NCBI GenBank assembly: GCA_039621445.1
Contig: CP154954.1
Coordinates: 6,273,425-6,337,424 of the forward strand
Origin: Euglena gracilis
Lineage: Eukaryota
Reading direction: 5' to 3'
DNA length: 64,000 nucleotides
Of this stretch, positions 1,225-25,303 are shown in pieces. The number at the start of each line of letters is the position of its first letter. Positions within the stretch are counted from its first letter, which is position 1. Below the pieces are notes generated by a model that was given only the letters and a program-made list of their open reading frames with translations, was not told the origin of the DNA and made no database searches. Both the position numbers and the translations under genes were made by a program.

Positions 1225-1626
1225 ATCAAAGAAACAAACACGGAAAATGATTTCTTGGAAATGTGGTAATACCACTCCACGGAAATCCTCGAATAGAGGA
1301 ACATCGTTTGGTAGGTCCAACCAATAAAATGTGACATAAGTCAAATTCTGAAACCATTCCGCTTCGGGATTCACAGGAACAAGTAATGCGCCTCGCGCTT
1401 GATCCTGGAAAATCTTATTTACAACAAGCGGGATAAGTTTTAGGGGTGGATGCATCCATAGGATAGTGTCTCCCCAAAAATTATCAAAAGCGTTAGAATG
1501 TTGCGACCAATGTCGCGGTAGTCGCGAATGCGCGTTGGAAGAGAATGCATCAATTTCTAAGGTCAAATCAAAGGAATCTGCCATATCGGCGATTTTTGAA
1601 AACCAATGTTTCAAGATTCGATATTG
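1225..1626 (-). pseudogene. Dam-like N6-adenine DNA methyltransferase domain in Gypsy-A pol (copy 1)
   Basis: Within ORF 1096..1758: QYRIL...IDAFSSNAHSRLPRHWS...NAFDNFWGDTILWMHPPL...GALLVP...EWF...VPLF. Motif IV reads HPPL (WMHPPL at 1441-1458) instead of NPP(Y/F/W). Confidence 0.75.
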
Positions 1627-2602
1627 ACCAAACTGAAAAGCATTCCAGGTATCCTTGGTGTACTTGGAGATCTGCTCAACATCCTGAAGGGGGGGAACAC
1701 GCTGTAACACAGAACAACAGAATTGTGAATCATCCACACACATGTCCATAGGACTCAATCCAGGGGGGGGGGTTGGGCATATACCCAGTCATCGGTGATG
1801 CGCGATAGCGCGGAATGCGCGATATGCGCGGGATTCGGACTATGTGCGGCAAGCACGATATTCGCGGGGGTGTTGGATAGCGCCATAGGCGCATGGGGAG
1901 CGCTATTCGCAAATCCTAAAAGGGAGGCTATGCCTCTGCACTGTAGTGCTTGATTCACATTCGCGAATTGCGAAAAACTTCCAATTGTAAGTGTGGGATG
2001 TGAACAACTACTAAGTGTATGGTTGGGTGTATCACCCATTGTACCAAGGCTACGTACGTTTTGGTTATCTATTAAATCCGTACCGGTTGTACCATTACCA
2101 AGTACATAAGTACTATTACCAGGTGTAGGTGGAGAAAAATTCCCGGTTGCGGAATCTAATCGGATTAGTTTGGAAGATTCAACTAGACATCAACAATCAA
2201 AATCATGGTAAGCGGAGATTCTCCGACAGTGAGCGCATTGGTAGGAGGGTTGGTGCATGTGGTGCGCGTTTGTGTGGGTGTCACTGCATAAGTTGGTGTC
2301 GGTTGGGGTAGCTGCTGGGAGGTGTACAGGGGTGTCCGAAATCGACACACCTGGTGGAAAACGAAAAAGTTGGGCAGCTGGGCGGCTACTCGACACCGTA
2401 ATTACTTCAGGCCTTTGGGCTTTCGCCTGGGAACCCAGCGAAACGAGCGGGGTTAAGCTACTGGCTTTCCGTACCGCATGGGAAACGAGCGGTAAAAGTG
2501 CTGTGTGTAGGGGGGCAACTTTCTGTTTACCCCTAGGGTAGGAAACGGTGTTTTCGGATGTGGAAAACGTTATGGAAATGCGGGGGGACGTCCTGGGTGA
2601 CG

Positions 2603-3034
2603 TCACGGGGAACAAGTTTGGGGGTTCGGCGTGTGTGCAGTGGTAGTGCGCAAACCGTGCGAAGGACAATCCACCACCATTCGGTGTTGCCGTAGGAATG
2701 GAAGACCCAATATGACATCTGACCCGGCGATATTCGCCTCGAATGCCCAAGTACCCAGAAAATTTTGTAATTGTGGGGGGTGTGTGTCGTGCTTCGGGAT
2801 AATGGGGAGGACTATGTCCAAAATGCATCCCAAGTCACCACCGCACATGGGGCTGTTGTCTGCAGTCATAATTTTGATGGGATTCTTGGCATGAACCAAG
2901 AGGGGGGTGGGTATAATTCCTTTGCGGAAAAGAAGGGGGATTCGACACCCTGTTTCGACTAAAATCTTGGCTTGTGCACAAAAATTTCGAGTTTTAATTT
3001 TCGCTTGTACCAAAAGTTCCAGGGGGGTACGCAA
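2603..3034 (-). pseudogene. Gypsy-A aspartic protease-like domain (copy 1)
   Basis: AKILVETGC at the D(T/S)G position, plus FEANIAGSDVILGLPFL. Aligns by eye with the Gypsy-B protease (ARILIDTGA...YEANIKVDAILSYPWL). Confidence 0.75.
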
Positions 3035-3098
3035 AGCGAAGGGTCGGGTGTAAAATCGTTATCGCGCCAACTATTCCATAACTCTTTGCTTACTTTGC

Positions 3099-4264
3099 TC
3101 AACATTCCAAGCAAAAATTTCGCGCGGGGAGTGGGGGACCGAAAACTTTCTGGGTACCGACTAAAAAGACCGATGGGCAGGGGTACCGACCATCATGCGC
3201 ATAGCGGGTATGCAACTTAGCCAATGAGGCTTCAATATTACCAACATCCTGTTGTAACTGTTTGTGCAAATCGGACACGGTGGCCTGAAGTCCGCTAATA
3301 TCCGGTGTTGGTGCACGGGTTGCCGCATTGCGGTTCTGCAAATCCGCGATTGCGGTCCGGATTTCCATTGTGCCGTTTTGCCACTGTTGTTGCAAATTGT
3401 CAATCCTACTCGCGACATTCGCGATTTGGGGTTGAAAACTCGCAATTTCAGCGGGAATTTCGCCTAATGGCGAGATTTCTGCTCCAATCGAGAAAGTCTT
3501 TCCTCCAAATGTTGCACATACGTGCGGGGGGCAAAACTTTGATTGGCTTGGGTAGAAAAGCGGGCAAAATTCGCGGAATCACCGCTCAATTAGAAAATGC
3601 GCTGTTGCGCTTCCTGAAATGCGGTTGAAAGTGTGGAGAACTGCTCCAATGTAATAAATTGTCCCAAATCGGGATTTTTTGATGGGGGTTCATGCAACTT
3701 TTGCTGCAATTGTGGAAAAATTGCCGTAATTGGCTCCAATTTGTGGGATAAAGCTTGCAATCTATGTTGCATGTTGGAGAAAATCGCATCATTGCGGGAT
3801 TGTGTTTCACACATGGCTTCACTCACTTTTTGGAAATGTTGTGGCAAATGTGCCTGCAAATGTGTGTCCAAACTTTGACGCAAAGTTGCTAGGTCCACAT
3901 TGGTGGATTGAAAATTTGTTTGGCAATATTCACCAACATCACGCACATAACTCCAAAGGTAATCGAGCTTGTGTTCTACAACCTTTTGGATGTTTTCATC
4001 AAAATCCAAAACCTTGTTAAGTGTCATAGCGCAATCCGCTACACAAGTGTGGACATGGGAGATTTGCCGCGTTAGCGGGTGGTCCACTGGAAGATTTGCG
4101 ACTATGCGCTGAATCACCGTAATGGGATGAGAAGAAATATTTTCCAACTCTTCCACATCACTGCTCACAGACTCTGTAGGACTTGTATAAGCAGGAACTG
4201 TCAAACGCATCTCCGGGTGCCATGGCAATGCCGGAAAAGAACCCGTATCCGGTGGTGCGGGCAA
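3099..4264 (-). pseudogene. Gypsy-A gag-position ORF fragments, coiled-coil-like (copy 1)
   Basis: ORFs 3590..4264 and 3099..3395 lie upstream of PR on the same strand and are rich in L/Q/E. No diagnostic gag motif seen. Confidence 0.45.
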
Positions 4265-5648
4265 TTGTCCAATCGGACTTGTGGGGTGAAGCGTAGGGGG
4301 GGGGCTGAAAGAAACATGGTGTTTCTAACGCACCTTCAACAAAAAGTTGCCGTGGCGTATCCGTCTCAGAGTCAAATGTGCCTATCGGCACCAGTGCGAG
4401 ATCTCGCCGGCGGGAATGGGTGTTAGCCGATTGGCTTTCCAACAAAAGGGGTTGTGCCTGTTGGGCATGGGGTTTGCTCTATAGAGCTTGACACCGATAG
4501 GTGTGGGGGTTCCCATCGGGCGGGGGGAGGATTACTCGACACAGACACCGATAGGTGTGACACACGCGGGGAAGGAGGATGACCTGCCAAATGAGTCAAT
4601 GCTTGTGTACCCCTATGGGGTTGAGGATGCTCATTAGAGCTAGTCAATGATGCCGCAGGTTCAAGTCCTCGAAGTGAACCAATCAATGCAGCGTAGTCAA
4701 TGGGAGTTGTGCTCTGCATTTTTGAAGCAAAAACACAAAAAACAAGTGTAAATTGCGGTGTAAAATGCAGAAACAAGTACAAAAAAAAGGGAAAGTATTA
4801 AAGTAAGCAGAGACCCGAACTCTGAGGTTTGAAGCAGCGTATACTGCGAACCGTCATAGGACGTGTCCGTGCGTACAGCTTTGGCCGGAAACGGCTTGTA
4901 GTGCCTGTAATCGCCTCTAGGCGAGGCACCACTCGACCGTTTGCCATCAAAAGGATCGAAAACCTAACCTGCTACAAAGTGTATGTCCAACCTTTCCTCG
5001 CTTTCGCCCTTTGGTGCGCAAAAGGTAAAAGTTGGAGTAACAGAAAAAAATAAAATAAAAATATAAAAGTTGAAAAGCCCTTTTCCCCAATTAAGAGGCA
5101 GAGCACAAGGCAGGTGAGAAGCCCTATGGGCTACGACAAAGAAAAGTGCCAAGTGACTTGGCTGTCCTTTCAGGACTTCAAATGAAAACAAATCAAACTT
5201 GAAAATCAAGTCTTGAATGAAATACCAGAATGGAATAAAATAGAAAATACCACCAAGAACCAGAATAAGGATTGAGTATTCCTAATTCAGGCCGTTGGCA
5301 TCTGTAGGAATACCACCCAGCATAGTACTGTGTATGGGGCTCAGAGCTATATCTGGCCGTAGGCTTATACCTACATACACAGTACCATGGCCTTACGGCT
5401 GCCTGGTACACAATTGCGCCAAGGGATCCTTCCGGCTTGTTCCGTACGCATCACGCCTCTTCCTACTGCGCAAGGGGTACCTCTGGGACGTTCGCCTACC
5501 GCCACCAGAACAGTGCCAGCATTGTGGCCAAAATCACTGGCCTTGGGACAGCCACACCCTCATCCGCCTGATCGGCCCGCTCCCACGTGCCCAATCAGGC
5601 TCACCTGCATTTAGGATTACAAGTGGGACAAGTGCAAAAACCCCCTGC

Positions 5649-5702
5649 CAGGGAAGAGGAGATCTGCTCTCGTGCGGAGACGTCCCCACGCACCCTGAAC
5701 CG
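5649..5702 (+). other. Degenerate 2A-like motif (CRE-B)
   Basis: Translates QGRGDLLSCGDVPTHPEP; positional counterpart of CRE-A 13401-13454. Confidence 0.6.
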
Positions 5703-5806
5703 CCGCAAAACCTAACAACAGACCACACACACACCCCGGACGTCGGGCTGGAAAGGCCCGTCCGTCGTAGTCCGCCCAAGGGCGCCGCCGCACAAGTGGG
5801 GCAAAC

Positions 5807-5860
5807 CGCGGACGGGGTAGCCTCCCCACCTGTGGGGACGTGGAGGAGAACCCCGGACCA
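5807..5860 (+). other. Intact 2A/StopGo motif (CRE-B)
   Basis: Translates RGRGSLPTCGDVEENPGP with a full D(V/I)ExNPGP core; 16/18 identical to T2A EGRGSLLTCGDVEENPGP. Confidence 0.93.
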
Positions 5861-6894
5861 GCCAGGCGTCCGGCACACGCGTCACCCCGCGGTGCACCGG
5901 CTGCGGCAGGTGCCCGGTACCACGACCACCTGTTGTTGGGTCTCGCTCACCCGGAACGCGACGCCGCGGTGGTCATCGACCGCGCGGGGCAGGAGTCCAA
6001 TCTCAGAGGACGGACCGCGCACATCCTTGTCGTGGGCACCCCCCAATGCGACATCACCCATGTCCTACATCAAAAAATCCCGACCCTCATACACCTACCC
6101 TCGGCCTGCGAACAACCTGTCTTTGACACCATGGCAGACACCATCAACACCTACGCCCACGCACAGGTTGAGGGTAGCCTGGACCAAATTGATCTCTGAT
6201 GAGGGCATGCTGGAGGATGACATTGAAGGTGGCGGTCTTGTTGGTGAGCCAAAGGTTGTGAGATGTTCAGCTGTGTAGTGGTTCAACGGTGGTGGCTCAT
6301 GAATGGACCAGGGTCTCAGTACAGGGCCAGGGTTGGTCTTGGGTTGTAGGCCTTCCACATCAATGGCATCAACCTTGGTAGGCTTTGGTTGAGCTGGGGG
6401 TCTTGGCCTGGCAGCCTGGGATGCATTGGTATGTGACCCCTGATCTCTGACCCTGCATCTGGGTCCACCCACTTGGGACCCAATGGAACTGATAGCTGGG
6501 CAGGTCATGGTCCCACAACTGGAGAAGGTTTTGGGCAGGGAGTCCCCAGCTGGAGTGAGGGGTGTCGATGCTGCCAGAGCCTGAGTGGGAGATGTCGATG
6601 TAACCACAGCCAAGGTGGGAGATGTCGATAGAGCCACAGCACCAGAAGGTGATGGTTCAGGTTGTGGTGTAGATGGGGTCGGGGAAACTGAGGAGTTGAA
6701 GGCTGGGTGCAAACTCAACATGGTGGATGGGGATGGTACTGGTCCCAGTGCCAGAAAGAAGGAGCCAAACATCAGTGTGACTCTGAGGCATGAATGGATG
6801 GTTGCTGACTTAAGGGGGCCAATGAGAAAATTAGGCCAATAATTGCTGCAATGTTGACTGCAAAAAGGCTTTGGCAGGTCCAAAAGGCTGACAG

Positions 6895-7085
6895 GCTTTT
6901 TCTGGGGGGGCTTTTGCAGGCCCAATACATGAGGAGGGAGAGCCGATTCCAGTGGGGGGTTTTGCAAACCCAATATTCCAGACTTTGAGACGGCTTCCAG
7001 AGGGGGCTTTTGCAGGCCCAATATTGAAGGTTGGGGCTTTTTCAAGCCCAAATGTGACGTGGAGAGCTTTTGCAAGCTCAAATAT
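6895..7085. repeat. Degenerate tandem repeat, about 40-55 bp spacing (ggcttttgcaggcccaatat core)
   Basis: Four to five copies, visible as LGLQKPP repeats in ORF 6095..7225. Confidence 0.6.
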
Positions 7086-7619
7086 GCACCCAGGTTGTCA
7101 ATAGTAGTTGACTGTCCGCGGCGACCACGTCGGCACGGTAGTACGGCGTCGTCTTCGTTCTCGTCGTCATGCAGCAGGCTGCCCAGTAGTCTGCAGTAGT
7201 CTGCGACGTGACGCAGGGTCTTCACAGTCCACCTCCATGTCGAGTCTCCGCTTGGTTCCAGTCTGCGTGGTCAGGGCGGCGACGATGCTCTTGGACCCCG
7301 TCTGGGGCTTTCCGGCCATGTTATGCGGAAGGCGAAAAAAAATCGACACTCAGAAATTGAACTCAGTCCACCGACCAGTGGCACAGCCTACTGGATTTGA
7401 GTGTTCAGGGGTGTCGGAGGCTATGTACAGATGGAGGAACCCCATGGATAGTCCGAGGTGTCAACTGTCGCGGGGCTCAGCGGGAGGAAAATGGGCAAGG
7501 CCCATCTTCAATATAAAGCGCAGGGGGAGGGCAGGGCGGTGCTACAAACCGTGTGGTATGGTCGTCGGCGGGTGTGCAAGAGGTGGGTTGCGGGGCGTGG
7601 GTGGGGGGGCGGTTGGTCG

Positions 7620-7696: not shown

Positions 7697-8392
7697 TTAA
7701 CGGAGTAAGTGCTTGGGTTGTAGGAGGTGGAATACCTCTCGTAGCAGGGCGATGGCCACGTTTTGGTAGATTTCCGCCTCCTTGATTTCGCGCTCAGCGC
7801 CCTGCTGCCAAAACGAGGCACGTTTGGCCACTCTGCTCAGTGTCCTGGCCGTTTCCGGTCCCATGCCGCCCCATGTCCCGAGGGCGAAAGGCGTGAAGCC
7901 CCACCATGCTTGCTGACATGGGATGTTGTATTTCTGCTTTTTGGCGTCCTCCCTCCTCTTTAGGAAGGATCTCCAGCGTTCGCGGGTTGCGGTGAGTTCT
8001 GTAGCCTGCCATCCATGGCAGACGGTGACGTCCAGCGCTGTCGGCTTCCCCTCAGACCAGCAGTCCAGAAGGGGGTCCGCCGGGCGGAGATGGCTGTCTC
8101 TGGCTGTCGGCAATGAAACTTCCTTCTGCACCCGCTGACCGCTGTTGGACAAGGTTTGAAATAGGGCGTCCTGTAAAGCGTTGTGGCGTGTTGCGAAGTT
8201 GTTCCTGCGGCAGAAGAGGAGGTGGTCGCCCTCCTTGTCCATGGGTTGGCCGAATCCTGTGCACGGCTGGCTGACGTCATTCAACACCAGGAGGCCCAAC
8301 CACCATTTCAGTCCCAGGGTGTATTCTTCGCTGGAGAAGGTGGTGTGGGAGTTGTTCGAGGGGGTAGCTGCCATCCAACCGTGTCCAAACCC
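7697..8392 (-). pseudogene. CRE-B C-terminal Zn knuckle plus restriction-like endonuclease
   Basis: LKWWLG, CTGF...DHLLFC (decayed CCHC), RHN, RPAD...ALDVTV...RREDAK, FTPFALGTWGGMG. Confidence 0.9.
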
Positions 8393-8895
8393 CGTGTGTT
8401 CAATTTCCTAAGGTTTGCATACAGTGGACCTGTTCCCCTATTTAGTGGCGGCCGCTCCATCCTTTCACAGAGGGGGACACAACAAGGCTGCCCTCTGGGC
8501 CCCATCGGGTTCGCCCTGGCGCTGCAGCCCCTGCTGGAGCGGATTACCAGGGATGGCCAGCTGCTGTGGAACAGCTGGTACCTGGACGACGGCCTCCTGG
8601 TCGGGACCCCGGACAGGATTGAACACTGCCTACGATTCCTGCTGCAAGAGTCCCACCGCGTAGGTCTCGGCCTTAACCTGCAAGCGTCATGTGGGGCCCG
8701 GAAGCAAGGAGTACACCCAGCTGTGACAGAATGCAAGTTGTCCCTTGGACACTAGGGGAGGGTATCACCGTCCTTGGTATCCCAGTTGACCTCCCTGCAT
8801 CCTCGGACACTACCAAGACGGCGTGGGAAGACGCCGCCGCCAAAATCGAGAAGGCCGCATCTACCATAACTTCCCTGACCGACGCCCAGGTAGCT
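8390..8895 (+). pseudogene. CRE-B RT core fragment, inverted relative to its flanks
   Basis: GTQQGCPLGP, WYLDDG, GLGLNL, GITVLGIPV, with a frameshift near 8685. Confidence 0.9.
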
Positions 8896-9452
8896 GCCCG
8901 GTCTACGCAAACAGTCTTGGAGGTGGCGGGGCCGCAGACCCGACGGACCTGGTGCGGATCCCCGCAGGAAGCGGCGGATGGCCTCCTTCAGTCTGTCCTC
9001 CCATTCCGGGGTGTGGTTCTCTGGAAATGGCCTAACGTGTCGCGGGAGGCGGTTGGTGTCGACGTTTATGCCGGCAGGATGCAACTTCTCCAGGGCAGCC
9101 CAGACCTCCGGGTCCTCTGGTTGGTGCGCACCCTCGGAGAGCAGTATCTGGACCGCCTTCGCGGACGCCCCTTTAGCAGTGAGGGTGCGTACCCGTCTCG
9201 TTACTGCCTCACTGAGGGCGGTCGGCTGTGTTCTGGAGCGCTTTTCCGCCCTGGTTTCCACGATGGAGTGTCGTGTCTGCGTGACCTTCAGTGCCTCCGA
9301 CAGAAGGGTGGTGTAATCCCCCTCGCGGAAAAGTTTGGCGCGCCTCAGCAGGATGGACTGCAGCTCTGCTGCCGAGGGCGGTGAAGTGGTTGACGCAGGT
9401 CGAAGGACGAGCTTTGGGAAAGGGTGTGCCCCGAACAATGCCGCGTCCGAAC
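8893..9452 (-). pseudogene. CRE-B RT N-terminal region
   Basis: FPKLVLR...LFREGDY...AKAVQILLSEG...LEKLHP...SAPGPSGLRPRHLQD, colinear with CRE-A 14050-14585. Confidence 0.9.
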
Positions 9453-11680: not shown

Positions 11681-11722
11681 CTGTTACTACAAGCAGGAGA
11701 TGTGGAGCAAAACCCAGGGCCT
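11681..11722 (+). other. Intact 2A/StopGo motif 1 (CRE-A)
   Basis: LLLQAGDVEQNPGP. Confidence 0.93.
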
Positions 11723-11877
11723 GCAAATGGGCCGTCTTCCCAAATGCCCACCGAGACAGTCTGGGACACCACAGAGCGGTTGGGGCAAATAGGGCAAATC
11801 TGGTGTTTCTGCTTACATACCACACGAGCTTCCGGTCCGGCAAGCAACCACAAAAACTGTCCCAGCATAGTGCTCGA

Positions 11878-12122
11878 TGTGTGTTGTGTGGCTCCAGCAT
11901 TCGCCACCAAGGTTTCGAATCTCTGCGCTTGCACCGCTGCCAACAGCATGCCGCTCGTGCCTCCACTCAATCCCCTTTTCACGTCCTAGACACTTCACGC
12001 TGGTCCTCGGAAGAGCTGGGCCAATGGAAAATGGAACCTGGTGGAAGGCAGACTGCGACGTGTGCCGGCGGCACTGGGTAACTTGTAACCTTGCAATACT
12101 ACTCAGGCATGAATCACTGTGC
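11878..12122 (+). pseudogene. Two putative Zn-finger motifs after 2A motif 1
   Basis: CVLC...LRLHRC and CDVC...LLRHESLC, in different frames. Confidence 0.45.
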
Positions 12123-12356
12123 CAACCACGCCAGTGGGACCCCGACTACGACGCCGATCCAAGCCCCCTACCCTCCCCACCATCATCACAGACTCCCCCA
12201 CCCGACAACCACAACTATAGCACTGGAACACAACAACAGCAACAGCATCAGCAAATGCAAACACAGCCACAGGCACACCCTCATCAACATTCACAATACC
12301 ACAGCTGTTCTAGCCAGCCCCAAAGGCTCTGCCACCACACTCCCCAAATACCGTCA

Positions 12357-12410
12357 GGCAGAGGCGCAGCCATTTTGACTCACGGGGACGTGCAAAAGAA
12401 ACCAGTACCG
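12357..12410 (+). other. Decayed 2A-like motif 2 (CRE-A)
   Basis: GRGAAILTHGDVQKKPVP; three single-base changes (CAA/GAA, AAA/AAC, GTA/GGA) from GDVEKNPGP. Confidence 0.7.
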
Positions 12411-12518: not shown

Positions 12519-12910
12519 GACTACATGCTCGACCCCCCATGGGTCAACTGGGTTCTGCAATCACTGCAGGTGCCCCCAGAACATCACCACACAGTGGATG
12601 CATTCGCGAGCTGCCACAACGCGCAACTTCGTGAGTAATGGGACGAAAACATAGATTGCTTCACCAAGGACTGGTGCACAGACAAGGCCTTGTGGATGAA
12701 CCCACCATTCAATCCAAATCCCAGCCGTTACTCAGCGTCTGCTCACCGCCGGGGGACACGCAGTGTTGCTGGCGCCAGCTTGGTCCCAATCCCTGCGTTC
12801 TCTACAACAACTTTGTACGCGCACGGCAATCCTCCCACCAGTTCCCCTATTTCGCGTGAGGGGGACAGTACTGATGCCTGCACCACCCTGGAGAACACAT
12901 GCTTTCTCTG
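12519..12910 (+). pseudogene. Dam-like N6-adenine DNA methyltransferase domain in CRE-A (copy 1)
   Basis: DYML...TVDAFASCHNAQLRE*WDENIDCFTKDWCTDKALWMNPPF (NPPF at 12699-12710), then after a frameshift VLLAPAWS...PVPLFRVRGTVLMPAPPW. Confidence 0.85.
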
Positions 12911-13227
12911 TCTCCCGCCCAAATCCCTCTCCCAGAGACCCCCTAGCACCCCTACGACTCTCGCACTCTCCACCTGCTTCCTCTGCCATCAGCTCAGATA
13001 CCCCTCCGCCAGACCCGGGCACTCCTCCACGACCCTCTCACCCACCGCCAGTACTTCACTACAGAAATGACTTTCCATTATGCCGATCAACCGATTTGCC
13101 CCCTTTGACATCCTGGGCCTTCGCACAAAATAACGCAAAATGGATCTCCTTCGTACACTTCGCGGGCCGCGTTTTCGTCCTCGAAAGATGATTCCTTTGG
13201 GACATCAGATTCGGCCCCCCCTGGCCG

Positions 13228-13266
13228 TGCAGTTCATGTGGAGGGAAGCACTGGTTCTGGGATTGC
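13228..13266 (+). other. CCHC Zn-knuckle-like motif (C-x2-C-x3-H-x4-C)
   Basis: CSSCGGKHWFWDC; CRE-B counterpart CQHCGQNHWPWDS. Confidence 0.7.
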
Positions 13267-13400: not shown

Positions 13401-13454
13401 CAGGGCCGCGGCTCACTCATGACCTGTGAAGACATCGAAGAAAAACCAGGACCA
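13401..13454 (+). other. Decayed 2A-like motif 3 (CRE-A)
   Basis: QGRGSLMTCEDIEEKPGP. Confidence 0.8.
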
Positions 13455-13620
13455 CTCCGATCCCCACCTTCCTTGCGTGGCCCCCTCCATCACTGCGGAC
13501 CCCCGTGCACACCCCTACGGCCACTACACCTCAGCCCACAACTGAACGAACTTCGAGCCTGCCAAAACGAGAAATAGACCCTACTTCAGAAAAAGTCCCC
13601 GCGGACAGCGCCCGAAGGGC

Positions 13621-13674
13621 ACTGGGAGAGGTTCACTCCTCACCTGCGGAGACGTGGAAGAAATCCCAGGACCC
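13621..13674 (+). other. Near-intact 2A motif 4 (CRE-A), same frame as RT
   Basis: TGRGSLLTCGDVEEIPGP, 16/18 identical to T2A; ATC is one base from AAC. Frame matches ORF 14056, with two intervening TGA stops. Confidence 0.9.
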
Positions 13675-14055
13675 GCAGCACCCACGACGGCGCAAAACAA
13701 GTCATGCAAACGCAAGGAACGATCCAGCTCCGCCTCCACTCGATGACCAGCAGACAACGCAGACACCACTGACCGCCTGAACGACCTAGCCCACCCATGG
13801 GAAGGCAGAGACGCAGCAACCGTAGCAGACTCGGCGGGCAAAGAAAGCAACCTGAGAAACAACGCCAGATGCGGGATAACCATCAGTGCGAGACCTTGCC
13901 CAATTGAGGACATCCTACAGCTCCGCGTGAACACCATCCTGCATGTCCCCGCAACTCTCCAAACCACGATATGAGACATCCTTGGAGCCGCCCTCGACGC
14001 ATACACAAGCAACCCAACCGACGACGGGCTCTTTGCAATCCTGGCTTTCCCCAGA

Positions 14056-16909
14056 TTGGTGCTCCGCACAGTAAATGCGAAAGGTACACACGCCCCCGAT
14101 GAACTCGCCTCGGCAATTGGAAGACGAAACGGCCTGTTCCGATCCGGCGAGTACGGCACGTTACTGACAGAGCTCCACTCAGCACAGAAATCCGCAATTT
14201 CAAACGCCACAGCGCTAATTAAAACCAGAGCGGAAAAACGGGCAAGAACAGAACCCTCCAGCCTACCAGACCGAACCCTGCAGAGAGTCAAAACGCTCAC
14301 AGGGGAAGGAGGCCCAGCCAAAGCACTCCAACTATTACTCTCCGAAGGTTCCCACAAACCACAGGACCCACAGGTGTGGAACAAACTGGAAGCCCTTCAC
14401 CCAAACGGTAAGCCGGTGGACCTGAACAACCTCCCCGCCAAGATCACACCGTTCCAGGATGGACAATCAATCTCGTGGGAACCAATCCTGCATGAGGCAA
14501 TCCTGAAATTCCCTCGGACTTCATCCCCAGGACCTTCTGGGCTCCGCCCTGTTCACCTGCAAGACGCAATCAAGCGCCCAGGCAGAGGAGCACAGCTAAT
14601 TACAGCACTCGCCAAAATGACCAACACCTGGGTGAATGGGGACCTCCCTGCTGCACACTCCCCGTTCTGGTGCGGCGCCAACCTGACTCCGCTCAGAAAA
14701 AAGGATGACGGTGTCAGACCGGTGGCAGTGGGTGAGACCATACGGAGGTTGATTGGCAAAGCCCTCTTGGTAACAGGCACGGCAAAAGACCAGGTCAGCA
14801 AGCTCCAAACCACACAAGTCGGCGTTGGGGTCACAAATGCAGCAGAATCAGTGGCAGTAGGCTTTCAGCACCTGGTGCACAAACTGGACCCAGCCGGCAA
14901 TTGGGCAAGTTTGCAACTGAACTTCTCCAACGCCTTCAATTGCATAGACAGGTCACACCTGCTGCTCGAGGCAACAACCAGAACGCCCTGCCTCTTCAAC
15001 TACCTCAATTTCGCGTACAAGAACCCTGCCGCCCTATTCTGCGCTGGCAAAATCCTCTGGTCCCGCTGCGGAACTCACCAGGGCTGCCCACTTGACCCAG
15101 TCGGCTTCTGCGTTGGTCTGCAACCTCTGGCAGAGACCATCAGAAACAAAGCGGAGCTACTCTGGAGTTCGTGGTATCTGAATGATGGTATCATGGTAGG
15201 CCAACCCGACAAACTGCAGAAAGTCATCTCCTTCCTCCAGGGCGAAGCCACACGCCGCGGACTCCAACTGAACCTCCGAAAGTGTGTGGTATGGGGGCCA
15301 GCTGGCAACCTAATCACCTCCGCACCAGATATGACCGTCATACCATGGCAAGAACATTCAGGGATCACGTATTGGGAGTTCCAGTGGATTTATTCGGGGG
15401 GGGGGAGCGGGCACTCAACTGTAAGAGGCCGCCAGTCGTGTGGGGATCAGGGCCGCAGGGTTGGTACCACTACCCCCCCCCCTTATTTGAGCACACCTCC
15501 GGAGTGCCAAACGGTAGACTGGGGGGGGGGGTAGTGGGTAGTCGGCCGACTAGTCGGCCGACCAATTGGGTAGTCGGCCGACTAATTGGTCGGCCGACTA
15601 GTCGGCGGACCAATTCCCACAAGCCACCAAAAGACAGCTGAAGCGTGGGTTGCGGCCACACGGAAAATTGAACACGCAGCAGACATTGTAACCCAAATGA
15701 CAGATGCCAAAATTTCTCATCACCTGCTACGCTCCTGTCTTGACGGTTGCAAAGTGAACCACCTGCTCCGCGCCTCCAACAGCTACCTCTGTAAAGAAGC
15801 AGTCACCCGATCTTCGGAAACCATTCTTCAAGCTTTTGAGAACGTCGTTGGAGTGCCTCTGAACACCACACAGAGACTGCAAGAAGCACTGCCACTCACC
15901 CTCACACAACCAAGCAGCGGAACGTACAGCAGCCCTTTGTGCCTTTTACACAGAAGGATATCAGAGAATCGGTTTGCCTCAGTATGCAACAGACCCAGTG
16001 GCAGATCTCATTGAACCACCCCTCAAAAACTTGTGTGCTGCCCTGCCCAACCACTCGACAGCCCCGAGACTGCTGGGGAATCTGGCCCACACCAAGACCT
16101 CCGGAAAAATGAACAATCCCAAAAATGGTGGTCCACAGAAATAGGAAAAACCACAATGGACAACCTCATCAACCAATGCAAACCACGAGACCAGGCCTGC
16201 CTTTTGGAACAATCCTCAGGAATTGGACATGGTTGTATGGTCTCTCCACCGTCCCCCGCCCTGCACACTGTCTTCTCAAGTGACGAGTACTGTCTTGGCC
16301 TCAAATGGTGGCTCGGAATGCCCATCATAGACGACGACACGCAGAAATGCCAAGGCTGCCCCACTGGACAGGGAAGGGGACCACCTCATCTGTTGCCCAC
16401 GAAACAACTTCACTGTCAGACACACGGCTGTTCAGGATGCAATTTTCACCCTCCTATCCTCCACAGGCCAAGGTGTCCAGAAGGAAGTCACAATCCCCAA
16501 TGCCCCCGATGCCAATCTGCGCCCCGCTGATCTCTTACTGGCATGCTTCCAGGATTGCAAGCCCACAGCCCTCGGCGTCACGATCTGTCATGCATGGCAG
16601 ATCCCAGAACAAAGTACCTCACGGGAACGATGGAGGTCTTTTCTTCGACGCAAAGAATCTGCCAAGCACACTAAATATTACGTCACCTGCCAAAATGCAG
16701 GTTGGTCTTTCACCACCTTGGCAATGGGCACATGGGGAGGCCTCGGCCCAGAGGGCGCCCGCTTGCTCGGTCGCATCTTCAAACGAGCCACGGCGACGCA
16801 AGAAGGAGAAATAGGGGAACTCAAGCAGGCCGAATGCTATCAGGCCGTCGCTGTCGCACTCACCCGCCAAATCTGGCAACTCCTCCGAGTGAAACACACC
16901 GTCCGCTAA
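14056..16909 (+). pseudogene. CRE-A RT, thumb and RLE; inactivated
   Basis: SSPGPSGLRPVHL, RPVAVGETIRRLIGK, LNFSNAFN, HQGCPLDP, WYLNDG (Asn at two catalytic Asp positions); insertion near 15393-15615; LKWWLG, LRPADL, MGTWGGLG; several frameshifts. Confidence 0.93.
15393..15615. other. About 220-bp insertion in CRE-A RT with G/C runs and a palindromic array
   Basis: Interrupts LGVPVDL...PTSHQKT, which is contiguous in CRE-B (LGIPVDLPASSDTTKT). Contains repeated gtcggccgac palindromes at 15538-15615. Confidence 0.75.
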
Positions 16910-17835
16910 ACATGCACACCGCTAGCCACAAAATGCTCCACCAGCAGCGTCACACAGAGCACAAACAGCCAAATGCGTACTACTTCGGGAAGCCGAGAGA
17001 CAAACAGGGAACCTCCTCGCCATCAAAAGACACAAACACGCCCCGCCAGGCGAACACCCGACACACCCCTCGCGCCACGTAACATATAGGAAGTGGGTCT
17101 TGCCCACGGGCCGAACAGCAGGGGCACCATACACAAACACACCCCGCCATTCAAACACCCCCCCTCCCCCGCCAAGGTATATATATGGATCGTTGGTCTT
17201 GCCCACGGTCTCCTAACCAGCTGACCGCCAACAATGCCTATACTTGCAGTGTACACTACCATCAGTATAACCTACCCGCGATATAACCTACCCGCGGCAC
17301 AGGAAGTCACAAGAGGGTTCCTCTTGTGGCGCGGGCCAAAAGAAACGATACCCTGGGCCCAGGGCACGGTTCGGGTGAAGCTGTGCTACCCACCGTGAAT
17401 TCTCAACCGTCCTTTGTAGCTTTTCTGCTTGTTTTTTTTCGACATGTCACATGGCTGACATGTCCCCTGGTGGGGTTCTAGTTACAAGCTGGGATTATAA
17501 AGTACAAGTTTTCAAGTTTCAACTTTCTGTACAACATTGTAAGTCCAAGGACAATACTTGTTTGCAAGAGCATAGGTACGCTGGTGGACAGTGCTTCTAG
17601 CCTCAGTGCTGGGGCTTCTTTGGCCGTATGCTGCTGGTTACTGCAGAATTGACTTTAAGTCGGTCTGTTTTACTTTTTGTGAACTGTTTTGTTTCTTGCC
17701 TTTTCTTTTTGTTTCTGTTTACAAAATAGCCCCAGAACAAAGGAAACCGAGGAACTTCGGTCTGTTTTTGCAAAGCTCCCATTCAGATTGTGCCAGTGTG
17801 CTAAATGTGAAAGGGATTTTGAAGATTTTGAAGAT

Positions 17836-20029: not shown

Positions 20030-20320
20030 ATATTAGGCTGCCCCCCCCGCTTCTCACGGGTGGTATGAGGGTCTTCACCAAGATCTGCCCCCCCCTTCCA
20101 ACGGGTCGGGGGTTTTTGGTAAAATTTCGGTTGGCGCCCCCCCCCTTCGGGTCGGGAGGATTTTTTGGTTCAAATTCGTCAAGCCCCCCCCCCCTCCTCG
20201 GGCAGGGGGATTTTTGTCAAAAAATCAAGCGCACCCCCCCCTTTTCGGGCCGGGGGGATTTTTGTCAAAAAAATCATGCCCCCCCCCCTCTCCTCAGGTC
20301 GGGGGGATTTTTGTCAAACC
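20030..20320. repeat. Degenerate tandem repeat, about 45-50 bp (poly-C...cggg...ggggattttt...caaa)
   Basis: About five imperfect units. Confidence 0.6.
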
Positions 20321-20738
20321 GAACGGGGGCTCATAATGTGACCAAGGACTCCCAACCACAATGTAACCCATCATCTCAAAGAATCAATCTCCAAACCCTA
20401 ATAACACCGGGAGGGAAGAGGAGGGGACGGCAAATATAGAAAGTGCGGTGCGGCAATGAGCGCAGTGTGGCGAATATAATAGCAATGCGGCGGCGAATGC
20501 ACTGAGGTGCCCCTTGCACTCCTGGCCCCCTTGCGGGACCTTTTTCTACCTTTCTCCATTCTCCTTGGCAAATTCTTGCATTTGTACATTCTCTCATTTA
20601 CACGCTCATGCGTGTGTGCGTGCACTCACACCCACACGGACGTGCAAATCCGGTTTTTGAATTTTAAAAACAGCACTTTGCCTTCCCATTAGGCTCACCG
20701 TAGAGCCTTGGACAGGGCCTTATGGCTCACCTTAGAGC

Positions 20739-20955
20739 CTACGGCCCACCGTCAATTTTAAGTTCGGACATTATGTCCATTTTCACTTTTTTCTCACGGC
20801 AATACTTCACAAACTCCCCACTGAACCTGTGAATAAAATTCCCAGCCGGTTCCCAGGTCTGCTCCCCGTCTTCATATCCGACCCACTTTGTTTAAAACTC
20901 CCACTTTCCATCCTTTCCTTTCCGATGCCTTAGAATTTTCTCCACCTCCCACTCA
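20739..20955 (-). pseudogene. Gypsy-B chromodomain
   Basis: EWEVEKILRHRKGKDGKWEF*TKWVGYEDGEQTWEPAGNF. Confidence 0.9.
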
Positions 20956-22103
20956 TCAGGTAATGCCTCTTCTTCTTTTTCGGTACGTTTATAATAAAAA
21001 AGAGGCACCCCTTTCCCTTCAACTTGGGGTTCCCGATACTCCTTCAAAAAACTCCTATGAGCTTTTGTCTCCACCCCAGGTTTCATTTCGATTACATAAC
21101 TTCGTTCCCCTTCTCTACCCTTCACGACCCCAGGTCCCACCCACCTAGAGTCAAGCTTCTCACCCGACCCTTCGGGTCTCCTACACCAAACCATCATCCC
21201 CACCTTTAGGGGTTCCATTTCTTTCCTCCCCTTATTTATCCTTGCCACCTCCTCCTCAATGCTTTTTGTTGAGTATCCTAGCCACCCTCCCATCAATGTC
21301 TTGCATCGTTCGGAAAAAATCTACCGAATCCTCACATTCTTTGGGTGGTTGGTAGGGTACCCCTGCTAATGGTCGTTCCCTTCCATGTAGAATTTCATAT
21401 GGGCTGAACCCGCTTTCCCCCTTTACGTCGTGAATTCGGTCCACAGCTTGGGGTAAAGCTTCAACCCAATTAATTTTTTCTTTCACGTACAAATTTCTCA
21501 ACACCTCCATTACCTGTTGTCCGGCTCTCTCAATCCTCCCGTTTGCTTGGTGGTGGTATGCTTGGGAATATGCTTGCCTAATCCCCAAAAGTGCACACAT
21601 GTTTTTCCACCAAGTTCTTGTGAAATGGCTCCCTTGGTCACTTGAGATGACCGAGGGAACCCCAAAAGGCCTCCACTGACTTTTCACCATTTCCTTAGCC
21701 AACTTGGCACCGGTTAATCCCTTGTCCTTGCATGCAACCCCCACAATCCATCCCGAATGCCTATCCACACAAAGGGCTAGGGTGTCATACTCCCCCCCAT
21801 CGTGTAAAACCCTTGGCATTCGAAACAAATCGATGGCAACACTTATCATTAGTGCAGGGGGTATGGGTGTGGACTCGATCGGTCCTTTCAAACTCTTCCC
21901 CCTCACACTCGCTTGGCATGTGAAACAATTTTTGCTGCACTTTTGGTTGAGTTGTTTTGCAGCCTTTTCATCAGCCCAAACAAAACGGATTGCAATGTGT
22001 TTCCAACTTTTTCAGGGCCAACGTTCCCCAAAAACTCGTGAAGTTCCTGAATCACCAAGTGTTGAAAACTTTCAGGCACACACAACTTTTCTTCAAAAAG
22101 CAA
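20956..22103 (-). pseudogene. pol: Gypsy-B integrase
   Basis: LHEFLGN...CFTC, VAIDLF, VISSDQGSHF, HQANGRIERA, FSPYEILHG, KLDSRWVGPG (GPY/F-like). Confidence 0.93.
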
Positions 22104-22519
22104 TTGGCCATTTAGCTCTTTGAAGCCCGTTGGCCAAATTGAATCGCCTTTGGTAGCTACCCATTTTTCTTTCCATGTGGGGCATTGGGAATATGCTTCC
22201 CCCCCATACGGGCTTAATATCCTTAGGGGTCGTACTTGGCAGGGCGTCCCCCACTTCCATACGAGTGTCCCCCCTCGAACTTTCAGCCGTCTCCGGGACA
22301 GGGGTCGTCTCCCCCCCCCACTTTCTCATCCCAAAAATGAACTCGTTTCTTTTCTTTCCTGGGCCATTGTGAGTGGGTGTCCACAGGGGTGTCTTTTCCT
22401 CCTGGGTCTACCCCACCCTCGGTTCCCCTCCTTGTGCACTCGCCTTTTTCCTCCTCAGGTGTTACGTTTTTGCCACTACAGGTTGTCACCCCCCGTATCC
22501 AGGCATTACGTAAATTGGG

Positions 22520-23283
22520 CTGGTTTTTGATTCTTATCTCCAAACACTTTTTTTCCTCTTCTTTTTCCTCCCGGATAAAATTTTCCATTTCATCCTTGTC
22601 TTCGGCTGACCCATGCTTACTTATATCCCTTAGGGCCTGTGAATCTGGGTATGCCCACCGACTAATAATGTCGGCTATGGTATTTTCTTTACCCGGGATA
22701 TATCCCACCGTCAAATCATACTTGGAGAAAATTTGGTGCCATCTCGCCCTCCTCCCAACCGGACCACTGGGGGTGTCCAGGACTTCCCTTGTCCAAGACT
22801 CCAAACTTTGGTGGTCGGTTAAAACCAAAACGGGTTGCAATCCAATCCAACTCTCCCATTTTTGTAGTGCCAAAATTATGGCATATGTCTCCAACTCCCT
22901 GGGGGTCCATTTTCTTTGCCCCTCGGTCAATTTTCGAGACATAAAAGCCACTGGCACAGTTTTTTTCTCAATCACATCTTGGGCTGTGGGCCCCCCTCCT
23001 TCATTTGCTCTAACGTTGCCCCCACGGCGTACCCACTGGCATCTACCCTTAGCACAAAGGGTTTATCTGGGTCTACCCGTTGCAACATTAGGCCCGAACA
23101 CAACCATTTTTTCAGCTCCTCAAAAGCTTTTAAATCCTCCCCATCAAATTCCACAGGTTTTCGACTTCCTTTCTTTCCCACCTCCCTAGGGACTTTCAAT
23201 TTGTCTTGCAGCCGGGCAGCTACTTCCGCATACATGTGAACGTATGCATTGTAATAATTTGTGAATCCCAAAAAGGCTCTCAA
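22520..23283 (-). pseudogene. pol: Gypsy-B connection domain and RNase H
   Basis: FLGFTNYY, VLRVDASGYAVGATL, VAFMSRKL, RELETYAI, VLTDHQSL, YIPGKENTIADIISR. Confidence 0.93.
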
Positions 23284-24021
23284 AGCCGTAATTGTTTTTG
23301 GAACCTCCCACTATTCGATCGCTCGTAGCTTACCCGGTGCTGGCCTCCTAGTCCCATTTCCTAAAATCTGTCCACAAAATTAAACCCCCTCCACAAAAAG
23401 TTTGGCTTTGAATTCATCAGCCACCAAAAGTTCTGTTTTGAGCACTTCCAACACTCTCCTCAAATCTTTTTCATGTGCCCCCACTAGATCCTCCCCTTCC
23501 CCGACCGTTGTCCACACCAGTATGTCGTCTATGTCCCCTGTGGCGATATCCCTTACTGGTGTCAAACGGTCATCGATCATTTGCTGAAATTGTTGGGGGG
23601 CATTTGTCAAACCCATTACGTTCACCCTCCACTGAAAAATCCCTTTGGGGGTGAAACAACACGTTATGGGTCGACTTTCTGGGTGTGAAGGTTGTTGGTG
23701 AAAAGCTTGATTTGAATCAATGATCGAAAACATTTGGTTTGCACCATGTTTGACAAAAATGTCTTCAGTTTTGGGTAAGGGGTAGTTGCATCGCCTTGTT
23801 TGGCTGTTTGGGCCCCTGAGGTCCACCACCCCCCTCCAAGGAGAATCGTTGGATTTTTTTGGAACTGGAAAAGTCTGGGAGAGCCATTCAGAATTTTTGG
23901 CTGTGGCTGGCTCAATGTATTTTTTGTCAAGCCAGTCTTGGGTGATTTTTTCAAGTGCCTCTTTCCTCTCACCATACATGAAAAAAGGCTTCTGTCTGGT
24001 TGGCTTTGCCCCCTCCTTCAA
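23284..24021 (-). pseudogene. pol: Gypsy-B reverse transcriptase
   Basis: WRGVVDLRGPN, YPLPK, MGLTNAPQQFQ, GDIDDIL (decayed YIDD). Confidence 0.92.
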
Positions 24022-24439
24022 AGGTATGTATGCATAACCATATTGTCCTCTTTCGGGGGGGGTCTGGAAATGGCGATGACTGAAATACTGTCCCCCGGTA
24101 ATCTTCCAAAACTTGTTCCCTCAACTTGACTACCCGTTCCTCCTCTTTTTTGTCCTCCCCCTCCCTTGCAATTATCATTCGGTTGACAACTTGCACTGGG
24201 GGGTCACTTCCTTCCAAATTTGTGGCAACCTCCCCCAAGTCCTCGTCACTCAAAAATTGCAAGTCCTGGTCCAACCCTTCCAATGGCAAACAAAGACCAA
24301 GTTTTTGCAACCCAAACGAAGACCCGTCCGCCACAGTCACATTGTCCACTGAAACATTTGTGTCATCCCTGAAATTTTGCGGACCCCTCCGTCCTTCAAC
24401 ACCCCGCAAAAAAATCAGGTCGGGGCTGTCTTTCACCAA

Positions 24440-24800
24440 TGCCTTGTGGTGTGGAAAAATTCCCAGTTTTGCCTCCGCCAACCATGGATAAGAAAGAATG
24501 GCATCAACTTTGATGTTTGCCTCATAAAATTCAACCTCATATTCCACAAACTCAATTTCCCTTTCCTCATTCGAATTTTGTTGAAGGATCATTTTCACCT
24601 TAGCACATCTGCTCCCCCCCGCCAAAGTTTGCCCATTGGCTGTTTCAAACCTTAACGGGTCCTTAGCAGGATACATTAGGTGGTCCCCTATCAACCCTTG
24701 TCGAATGAGGTTTGCCTCAGCCCCCGTGTCAATCAAAATTCTGGCCGTTTTTTCCTCCCCATTTGCCAACCGTATCTGTGTTTTTAACAGCAGTTGTCTG
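24440..24800 (-). pseudogene. Gypsy-B aspartic protease
   Basis: ARILIDTGAEANLI (DTG at 24722-24730), FETANG, DAILSYPWL. Confidence 0.9.
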
Positions 24801-24916
24801 TCCTCCCCAAGTTTCTTTGCTCCTCCCCGAGTGTTTGTCCCTCTCAACATTCTTTTTTTCAGCCGCACCAATTTTTTCTTTCCTGGGGCTGCCCCCCCCT
24901 GGGAGGGTTGCCTTCT

Positions 24917-25303
24917 ATCAATCAACAAGGCCCACACCCCCCAACGGGTACCCCTCAAAATCCACCCATCAGCCTCAAACAACTTTGTCCCCTTGGGAAA
25001 ATAAATCTTTTTGACAGCAATAGCCACCAGATTTCTCACCCACCTCCTATTCCAGTCTGGGCAAATACAAATTGCCCGACAATTGAAATTTTGCAATTTT
25101 TCAGCCACCTCAGGCCACAAAGTCCAGGGGGGGTTCATCCACAACGTTTCCTCCGCCCCCCATTCCTTTTTCGTGGCATCATTATCCCCCCCATAAAACT
25201 TTTCACACCTGGCATTTTGGCTGGTTGCAAAACAATCCCGTTACGCCTTAACCCGAAATTCATTCTCAATTTCCTCCATACAAACTTTCCTAACAGCATA
25301 ATC
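24917..25303 (-). pseudogene. Dam-like N6-adenine DNA methyltransferase domain in Gypsy-B
   Basis: DYAV...KA*RDCFATSQNARCEKFY...EWGAEETLWMNPPW (NPPW at 25124-25135)...ICPDW; in frame with PR downstream. Confidence 0.85.

Follow-up and report, generated by a model that had tools for sequence, protein, structure and literature searches.

A predicted Dam-like amino-methyltransferase set between 2A-like signals forms part of the polyprotein of CRE-A, an endonuclease-type non-LTR retrotransposon of Euglena gracilis. Based on the window (the whole stretch of 64,000 nucleotides analyzed) and on database relatives of the element, the polyprotein of this family very probably runs from a 2A signal through Dam, often accompanied by a small Cys/His knuckle, to a further 2A signal, reverse transcriptase (RT) and restriction-like endonuclease. 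This arrangement appears to be the new part of our results, and we did not find the layout in print. The label CRE is our own assumption by resemblance; what can be read directly is a non-LTR element of the endonuclease type.

Three homologous domains in decayed elements

The window is a nest of insertions in which positions 1-22374 recur at 41621-64000 as a tandem duplicate, 99.7% alike, and all Dam-bearing element copies in it are decayed. The first-pass annotation had placed Dam-like domains at 1225-1626 (minus strand), 12519-12910 (plus) and 24917-25303 (minus), and these coordinates hold. Domain A, a PF05869-type domain of the element Gypsy-A (1219..1629, minus), lies in an open frame and carries the motif IV variant HPP (HPPL) at 1444-1458. 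Domain B of CRE-A (12519..12930, plus) carries NPPF at 12693-12710, one stop at 12636-12638 and one single-base frameshift just 3' of NPPF, through which alone its second half (hhhP..LF..G..L) can be read. Domain C of Gypsy-B (24914..25303, minus) carries NPPW at 25124-25141 and one stop at 25241-25243. Second copies of domain A (42845..43246, minus) and domain B (54143..54532, plus, with the same stop as the first) lie in the tandem duplicate, a recurrence that had been overlooked.

The three domains share 22-29% pairwise identity in the alignment, match one another by tblastn inside the window (E = 4e-8 to 1e-4) and reach Smith-Waterman scores of 100-130 against shuffle maxima of 49-55, with 0 of 1,000 shuffles scoring as high for each of the three pairs. 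A profile built solely from 13 database proteins scored domain B at 151 bits, C at 84 and A at 44. Against Pfam PF05869 (cut-off 28.1 bits), domain C exceeded the cut-off (29.4 bits, E = 8e-7), domain A reached 23.2 bits (E = 6e-5) and a piece of domain B 17.2 bits (E = 0.004). The homology of these predicted PF05869 Dam-like amino-methyltransferases is thereby confirmed, and the common scaffold proposed earlier is visible in the alignment, with HPP for NPP in domain A. The domains belong to three distinct elements, as had been claimed: the RTs of Gypsy-A and Gypsy-B are 37.8% identical over 233 residues, and no significant alignment was found between the RTs of CRE-A and Gypsy-A. Their differing placement also stands, with A between protease and RT, B between 2A-like motifs and C before the protease.

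In Gypsy-A, all on the minus strand, an aspartic protease (2807..3022, with E for the catalytic D in the window copy) precedes Dam, and the RT (11..1033; RVT_1, E = 8e-24) follows it. Beyond this left-hand RT, the element can be followed in the duplicate unit, where the second copy holds RNase H, integrase and chromodomain (39502..41511; Chromo, E = 2e-10). With the order PR-Dam-RT-RH-IN-chromo, Gypsy-A would be classed as a Ty3/Gypsy chromovirus of the DAM-LTR type, in which Dam lies within pol together with protease, RT, RNase H and integrase.

Gypsy-B, likewise on the minus strand, carries an aspartic protease downstream of Dam (24434..24793), followed by RT, RNase H, integrase and chromodomain (20742..24120), which are interrupted by stops and frameshifts; its chromodomain was matched on a piece (Chromo, E = 0.002). 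The chromodomains of both elements had been overlooked, as had a C5 cytosine methyltransferase encoded just upstream of domain C (25352..25912). The latter is in frame with Dam and keeps the PC and ENP motifs despite stops and a frameshift; it is 49% identical to P0162 (E = 9e-53) and matches Pfam PF00145 weakly (E = 0.014). With the order DNMT-Dam-PR-RT-RH-IN-chromo, Gypsy-B would be a dual-methyltransferase chromovirus of the EpiLTR type, combining DAM, C5 DNMT and chromodomain. No flanking direct repeats (LTR pairs) were found for Gypsy-A or Gypsy-B, both of which are old and nested copies.

A Dam-like domain between 2A motifs

CRE-A lies on the plus strand. Its 2A-like motif at 11696..11722 is the sole canonical one in the window (DVExNPGP); the motif upstream of Dam (12384..12410) and a third one (13428..13454) are degenerate in this copy, and the fourth (13648..13674), directly before the RT-endonuclease protein, has an N to I change. 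A small Cys/His knuckle (13225..13266) shares the frame of the second half of Dam and recurs in CRE relatives and in a CRE fragment at 5511-5552. The RT (13975..15390) reads YLND for YLDD, marking a dead copy, and is interrupted by a 230-bp high-copy insert (15386-15615). The restriction-like endonuclease (16367..16909; H-x3-C, RH, E, RPAD) ends the ORF. Named database matches of the RT were hypothetical proteins of Diplonema and Cladocopium. As for the hallmarks of CRE insertion (spliced-leader RNA genes as targets, a poly-A tail and a target-site duplication), there was no Rfam match in 1-41700 and no poly-A at 16901-17330. RNA depth over the CRE-A Dam was zero in one RNA run (about 5% of reads).

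The layout is far clearer in relatives. Among 69 long homologues of the CRE-A RT, a profile search detected Dam in the same ORF in 13, eight of which were flagged PF05869; in-frame Dam was absent from the other 56, many of which are 5'-truncated ORFs. These 13 relatives, with RTs 28-50% identical to that of CRE-A, carry Dam and RT in one open frame. The endonuclease (CCHC-RH-E-R[PAE]AD), defined by the motif set CCHC, RH, E, R/KPD and D/E in the accessible text of PMC12857005, ends 11 of the 13 ORFs, and the remaining two stop early. A Pfam scan of two full-length members (P0001 and P0027) returned RT and Dam only, with no APE, protease, RNase H or integrase, and the precomputed domains of the 69 relatives included no APE, integrase, protease or tyrosine recombinase.

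A 2A-like motif stands between Dam and RT in all 16 CRE-linked Dams and before Dam in 10 of the 11 with upstream sequence, nine of these within 3-12 residues; it was found in none of 29 LTR-type proteins. The motif (D-[VI]-E-x-N-P-G-P) is canonical in most relatives, and intact Dam, 2A motifs and YLDD occur together in 14 of 30 further cluster members. More distant metagenome loci (61), most of them short or distant, gave no Dam or 2A match.

We also considered whether domain B could stem from an LTR or DIRS element that inserted into a CRE, or from chimeric assembly. The region is indeed an insertion nest inside a near-identical tandem duplicate, and no single contig of three DNA runs spans all of CRE-A; in these runs, contigs 85-99% alike cover 29-30 of 30 bins of the element, the Dam region included. 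However, the 13 one-frame proteins are independent database entries, P0001 is collinear with CRE-A from the second 2A motif through the ORF end, and the nearest Dam relatives of domain B are themselves CRE-borne. Together with the 2A-flanked Dams of other CREs, these observations largely refute the idea, to which we give almost no credence.

Descent, substrate and possible role

The comparison of methyltransferase and RT trees proposed in the first-pass annotation bears on how the domains came to lie in different elements. In the Dam tree, a branch with 98/98 support separates 16 CRE Dams and one DIRS-type Dam (P0181, RT-RH-Dam) from 31 LTR Dams; after adding 33 2A-only rows, the CRE/2A group had a support of 85, with two 2A-bearing rows outside it. 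A single clade for domains A, B and C was rejected (AU p = 8e-66), and the database proteins nearest to each come from elements of its own class, which speaks against a recent exchange of the three in this host. Judging by these trees, they are three old lineages, not one recent capture. Among CREs, the Dam and RT trees conflict under two models (AU p = 0.0002), which points to swapping of the Dam cassette among CRE lineages. From the trees we infer that CREs may have acquired Dam once and since then traded the 5' cassette among lineages; a DIRS-type donor is conceivable, an idea based on one DIRS-type sequence drawn from a CRE-biased list of the best 150. Among the LTR elements, the close relatives of domain C form one clade (100/99) in which the protease of P0118, P0127, P0144 and P0155 precedes Dam, opposite to Gypsy-B, so module order is shuffled within a lineage; three orders occur among Gypsy-B and its relatives, namely DNMT-Dam-PR (Gypsy-B), PR-Dam-DNMT (P0118) and Dam-PR-DNMT-RT (P0162). 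The earlier proposal of repeated capture or module swapping thus stands insofar as members of one family have passed between LTR and non-LTR elements and swapping is real, but differing positions alone do not prove separate captures.

The catalytic motif has been widely retained. Of 159 family domains, 140 carry NPP[FWY], and all 16 CRE-linked Dams carry NPP[FY]; 15 of the latter also have D-x-[FV]-A, the remaining one being cut short; median identity among CRE Dams is 40%. Such long retention of an intact motif would argue against neutrality. The suggested selection on retroelements to carry adenine methylation is, for DNA, unproven, as related eukaryotic DAMs expressed in dam- E. coli did not raise 6mA (Fernandez-Moreno et al., bioRxiv 10.64898/2026.05.21.726589). 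The same negative assay would fit a Dam kept as a non-catalytic binder of nucleic acid or SAM, serving as an ORF1-like helper or as a decoy for host methylation readers, as would the HPP variant of domain A and 2 of 159 relatives and the judgment, in the accessible text of Iyer et al. 2016 (PMC4738411), that DIRS Dam-like domains are likely inactive. Motif retention at such divergence weighs against this reading, which we regard as quite unlikely.

DNA 6mA seems the likeliest product, with RNA as a possible substrate. The structure model of the P0001 Dam domain (pLDDT 93.7) has a class I SAM-dependent amino-methyltransferase fold. Its best solved match in both structure searches was the RNA cap methyltransferase PCIF1/CAPAM (Z = 9.4, rmsd 3.0, 123 aligned), against 8.1 for T4 Dam (rmsd 2.7, 105 aligned) and 7.7 for E. 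coli Dam; no Foldseek match reached E <= 0.001 (best E = 0.006). The scores of PCIF1 and T4 Dam are close, and a search of solved sequences found no PF05869 chain, so PCIF1 may be no more than the closest fold with a solved structure. Dam might nevertheless methylate a cap-adjacent or internal adenosine of the element's transcript in a PCIF1-like way, or else the RNA within the RNA:DNA intermediate; RNA of the element would then pass as host mRNA or be stabilized. In the portions available, DIRS methyltransferases fall within the PCIF1 clade according to Iyer et al. 2016 (PMC4738411), and PMC11417388 attributes cap m6Am in T. cruzi to a PCIF1 homologue; the E. coli result and the cytoplasmic location expected of a released protein would also suit an RNA substrate. 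On the other side, PF05869 was matched by 40 of 40 family members and the phage DNA methyltransferase family phrog_111 by 39, compared with only 2 for PCIF1 (PF12237), and in E. gracilis and two ichthyosporeans 6mA is found on DAM-LTR copies more often than on other LTRs (bioRxiv 10.64898/2026.05.21.726589). We therefore consider an RNA substrate unlikely, if worth keeping in view.

Our best overall explanation, which we hold tentatively and at slightly under even chances, joins three old Dam lineages and the CRE 2A-Dam polyprotein to a Dam that is released and places 6mA on the new copy. Ribosome skipping, observed for 14 of 17 predicted class A 2A peptides (PMC12338488), would free Dam at the predicted CRE 2A sites as a separate small protein, much as the viral protease would in LTR elements. 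While target-primed reverse transcription is under way, or afterwards, the freed enzyme could then deposit 6mA on the new element copy. The mark might seed maintenance of 6mA by the host and a state open to expression in a genome otherwise methylated at CpG. One weak point is that 2A release would part Dam from RT, leaving any effect in cis on the new copy dependent on a putative tether; another is that expression of DAM-LTRs in E. gracilis was not raised (bioRxiv 10.64898/2026.05.21.726589).

A bolder version, which we consider improbable, would have this 2A-skipping non-LTR clade make an active adenine methyltransferase, swap the cassette between lineages and deploy it at the insertion site, on the new copy; in its boldest form, a restriction-modification-like pair in a eukaryotic LINE would shield filled sites from its own endonuclease. 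Taken separately, the reading of Dam as the modification partner of the CRE endonuclease, marking its own copies or filled target sites against recutting, draws on the 11 members that hold both in one ORF, and 2A release would presumably yield no less Dam than endonuclease. Yet the family is also kept in LTR and DIRS-type elements without such an endonuclease, the Dam of CREs is swapped without regard to RT, which would hardly be expected of an enzyme whose specificity had to match the nuclease, and most CRE-like RT proteins (56 of 69, many of them truncated) have no in-frame Dam. We judge this pairing very improbable.

Relation to known elements

The LTR half of our results, that is, Gypsy-A, Gypsy-B and repeated capture, is already published, and both elements are examples of a known design. 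Fernandez-Moreno et al. (bioRxiv 10.64898/2026.05.21.726589) describe DAM-LTRs with PF05869-type, NPP-bearing DAMs in Ty3/Gypsy polyproteins, which Gypsy-A fits, and report that DAMs were transferred repeatedly between retrotransposon classes, with incongruent DAM and RT trees. Their EpiLTRs of E. gracilis and Cymbomonas combine DAM, DNMT and chromodomain, and Gypsy-B adds up likewise with protease, RT, RNase H and integrase; unlike them, the Gypsy-B copy is dead, and the module order of the Euglena elements is absent from the preprint's main text. That main text covers only DIRS and LTR classes, with no non-LTR architecture, restriction-like endonuclease or 2A, and the supplementary figures may hold such sequences. 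For Euglena DAM elements with LINE-like RTs, it offers nesting or assembly chimera as an alternative; CRE 2A-Dam elements would explain these unresolved cases plainly.

The preprint, from May 2026, also proposes that retroelement DAMs methylate reverse-transcription intermediates and recruit host 6mA, an activity not shown there. All of its cases make free cDNA, whereas a non-LTR carrier makes none, which limits where and when Dam can act. Delimited by its 2A boundaries, the enzyme would be a natural free-standing protein of some 140-300 residues, and it may lend itself to assays better than domains excised from Pol.

Other known elements resemble CRE-A in part. DIRS1-like elements carry the same methyltransferase family, and P0181 groups with the CRE Dams; as far as the accessible text of Iyer et al. 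2016 (PMC4738411) describes, their Dam is C-terminal to RNase H and likely inactive, whereas the CRE Dam is N-terminal, bounded by 2A motifs and intact in motif IV. SymbioLINE-Dnmt, in the available part of de Mendoza et al. 2018 (PMC5890265), is a LINE with a methyltransferase upstream of RT, but a cytosine enzyme in a separate ORF1, in contrast to the adenine-type, 2A-split single ORF with restriction-like endonuclease of CRE-A. CRE-clade elements (CRE1/2, SLACS, CZAR, MoTeR/FoTeR) share with it a single ORF that encodes RT and, C-terminally, the restriction-like endonuclease, and the excerpts of PMC12278014 and PMC12857005 describe no methyltransferase in them. Finally, 2A-bearing non-LTR elements likewise place 2A N-terminal to an enzymatic protein, and the accessible text of Odon et al. 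2013 (PMC3708506) describes them in APE-type elements (L1Tc, Ingi, CR1, L2, Rex1 and Crack), not in endonuclease-type CREs; the CRE-A family would thus extend 2A peptides to endonuclease-type LINEs.

Three Dam domains in a retrotransposon nest

The window is a nest of eukaryotic retrotransposons, three of which carry a Dam methyltransferase domain: the LTR elements Gypsy-A (domain A, 1225-1626) and Gypsy-B (domain C, 24917-25303) and the CRE-like non-LTR element CRE-A (domain B, 12519-12910). A euglenid host is likely, since these architectures match those reported for Euglena gracilis. The first-pass annotation had placed the domains at these positions and assigned them to one family, and both claims held. 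All three matched Pfam PF05869, their pairwise identity was 22-29%, 0 of 1000 shuffles reached the alignment score of any pair, and a profile built only from 13 database proteins scored 151 bits for B, 84 for C and 44 for A. The frame of domain A is open, with HPP in place of NPP; domain C contains one stop, and domain B one stop and one frameshift. All three elements are dead copies, with a protease D to E change in Gypsy-A, broken frames in Gypsy-B, and a 230-bp insert plus a change from YLDD to YLND in the reverse transcriptase (RT) of CRE-A. This insert (15386-15615), of very high copy number and with short internal inverted repeats, splits CRE-A and is skipped cleanly by related contigs.

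Positions 1-22374 are tandemly duplicated at 41621-64000 (99.7% identity, period 41.6 kb), so domains A and B are present twice yet represent one event each. Between the copies there are 39 substitutions plus 24 gap columns, many of them within homopolymers; the repeat may be a segmental duplication of recent date or an artefact of assembly. Upstream of Gypsy-B lie 79-bp and 296-bp tandem arrays (27229-29574 and 30534-31724), and the minus strand of 31500-39500 holds several Q/P/A-rich ORFs of 150-310 aa without convincing Pfam match, together with related poly-A/T-rich spacers. Coiled-coil Gag-like ORFs also gave weak Pfam matches to families without any relation to them, which were taken as chance.

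The module order is PR-Dam-RT-RH-IN-chromo in Gypsy-A and DNMT-Dam-PR-RT-RH-IN-chromo in Gypsy-B (PR, protease; RH, RNase H; IN, integrase; DNMT, C5 cytosine methyltransferase); the cytosine methyltransferase had been overlooked in the first pass. An LTR search of the two elements found none. A preprint describes a Euglena DAM-LTR/DIRS group and EpiLTRs, elements with DAM, DNMT and a chromodomain, and reports that the eukaryotic DAM family is largely monophyletic, that DAM was transferred from DIRS to LTR elements at least four times, that DAM-LTRs are enriched in 6mA, and that an E. coli assay of DAM was negative (bioRxiv 10.64898/2026.05.21.726589). Because it reports both, the LTR-element half of our observations has already been published, as has the proposal of repeated capture. 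As side observations, the CpG observed/expected ratio was 0.52 in the DNMT-bearing Gypsy-B (20740-26800) and 0.91 in Gypsy-A (39500-46000), and the ApT ratio was 1.07 in Gypsy-A versus 0.75-0.84 elsewhere; the ApT, GATC and CpG ratios are anecdotal, with a single observation per element, and were kept out of the argument.

Dam and 2A motifs in CRE-type elements

CRE-A contains four 2A-like (ribosome-skipping) motifs, with Dam between the second and third, and the second half of its Dam shares one frame with a small Cys/His knuckle. Among 69 longer relatives of the CRE-A RT, 8 were flagged PF05869 and 13 scored 173-193 bits with the Dam profile, which was itself built from those 13. A restriction-like endonuclease ends 11 of the 13, and Pfam found no LTR or APE domains in the two Dam-bearing relatives scanned at full length. 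Searching 1.84 billion representatives with a profile produced 7549 matches at E <= 0.001, of which the best 150 were examined and 56 of these scanned with Pfam. The RT relatives and these best 150 of 7549 matches yielded at least 16 Dams tied to a CRE-type ORF. NPP[FY] is intact in all 16, each of which also has a 2A-like motif separating Dam from RT, and a 2A also lies ahead of Dam in 10 of the 11 proteins having upstream sequence (nine of them at 3-12 residues). The same 2A pattern, broadened once sequences had been viewed, matched 0 of 29 LTR-type proteins.

Dam-bearing proteins are spread over several deep RT lineages. None occurs in a 26-row RT group that includes Diplonema proteins, which is weak evidence because many Dam-less ORFs are 5'-truncated. 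A metagenome scan of 61 distant loci found 0 with Dam or 2A and carries little weight, since most loci were short or 21-36% identical. No named CRE references were found in an alignment search over proteins of 3696-5000 aa.

Several neighbouring structures were also observed. In CRE-A, 2A motifs 1 and 2 enclose a Cys/His-containing module (11723-12350, plus strand), other small Cys-rich cassettes sit between 2A motifs in its relatives, and the database protein P0070 carries two tandem Dam-like domains followed by a knuckle. A second CRE-like element (7721-9450, minus strand) has an RT core (8390-8895) inverted relative to its flanks. A third CRE-like fragment (5427-6190, plus strand) holds a knuckle, two 2A-like motifs (the canonical one at 5834-5860) and the start of an RT ORF, with no Dam in its surviving piece.

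Module order and probable cassette exchange

We constructed an unrooted Dam tree of 48 rows and 134 columns, excluding domains shorter than 105 residues, rows without a label and 33 rows with 2A only. Domain A fell within a PR-Dam-RT LTR clade (support 100/99) and domain C within an LTR clade including DNMT-linked members (100/99); domain B joined 15 further Dams from CREs together with a single RT-RH-Dam protein of DIRS type (98/98). A single clade of the three window domains was rejected (p = 8e-66), as was a grouping of A with C (p = 2e-5). In a quick tree with more rows, support for the CRE/2A group was 85, with two 2A-bearing rows outside it. A DIRS element may have been the Dam donor, judging from one DIRS-type sequence in a biased sample and an unrooted tree.

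The differing positions of Dam had been read as pointing to repeated capture or module swapping. Close relatives of C carry their protease on the upstream side of Dam, and three arrangements of DNMT, Dam and PR exist, so position alone cannot count captures. The proposed module swapping was upheld when Dam and RT trees were compared for 12 CREs with both domains. The trees conflict: the Dam data reject an RT clade with support of 99/94 (p = 0.0002 with either LG+G4 or a mixture model), and the RT data in turn reject a Dam grouping (p = 0.0002). The members behind this conflict are P0003, P0018, P0034 and P0027. An AU test of the database proteins P0023 and P0027 as a group on the Dam data gave no rejection (p = 0.24). 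Dam and RT identities in the 12 CREs correlated with a Mantel rho of 0.28 (255 of 5000 permutations as high), or 0.13 without two near pairs (1251 of 5000), so Dam and RT have not strictly co-diverged among CREs. The simplest reading is a single Dam capture into CREs followed by 5' cassette exchange; assembly chimeras among the database proteins could also explain the conflict.

Possible roles of Dam and comparison with known systems

The layout, its conservation and the tree conflict are observed directly; what Dam does for the element can be proposed conditionally. Skipping at 2A would separate Dam, by itself or together with the knuckle, from the RT-endonuclease, and the freed Dam would put 6mA on the new copy, seeding a permissive state. 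We hold this account tentatively, as a realistic possibility. In one RNA run, of which about 5% was read, depth was 0 over the CRE-A Dam, and no RNA datasets were listed as containing CRE-A. That Dam in CREs is an artefact is extremely improbable. The database protein P0001 and CRE-A align collinearly from the second 2A through the end of the ORF, and related contigs from three DNA runs cover the element (the extra base at 13590 is missing in all, and nearly all that span the stop immediately ahead of 2A motif 3 lack it), which makes nesting or artefact unlikely; the 16 CRE-linked Dams within CRE-type ORFs, all with the intervening 2A, argue the same way.

The domain model of P0001 (pLDDT 93.7) predicts a compact class I amino-methyltransferase, with structural matches to PCIF1 (Z 9.4), T4 Dam (8.1) and E. 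coli Dam (7.7); Foldseek returned nothing at E <= 0.001, with PCIF1 best. By sequence, the family is closer to phage DNA methyltransferases (PF05869 in 40/40, phrog_111 in 39/40, PCIF1 in 2/40). As a word-index query, the P0001 Dam region matched itself only, and sequences of solved structures gave 0 matches for protein P0003 and query A1 and one, by chance, for query A3. Iyer et al. (2016, PMC4738411) put DIRS domains in the PCIF1 clade and consider them probably inactive; our motif census, with NPP[FWY] in 140 of 159 family domains, argues that the active site was retained in the branch studied here. An RNA substrate is unlikely, and a non-catalytic binding role slightly more so. It is improbable that Dam shields the element from its own endonuclease. 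A search on phage T1/HP1 Dam returned nothing bearing on the target motif.

In the literature searched, with subscription journals, Repbase Reports and preprint supplements largely outside its scope, we found neither Dam in a non-LTR element nor 2A in endonuclease-type LINEs; the closest statement is a single preprint sentence that mentions LINE-like RTs of Euglena (bioRxiv 10.64898/2026.05.21.726589). Our analysis adds a side-by-side comparison of the three Dams, a statistical test that counts against one recent capture, and evidence of cassette swapping among CREs. With 2A skipping, the motif in CREs would take the role that the protease has in LTR elements, and the same use of 2A is argued for APE-type LINEs in a passage of Odon et al. 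(2013, PMC3708506).
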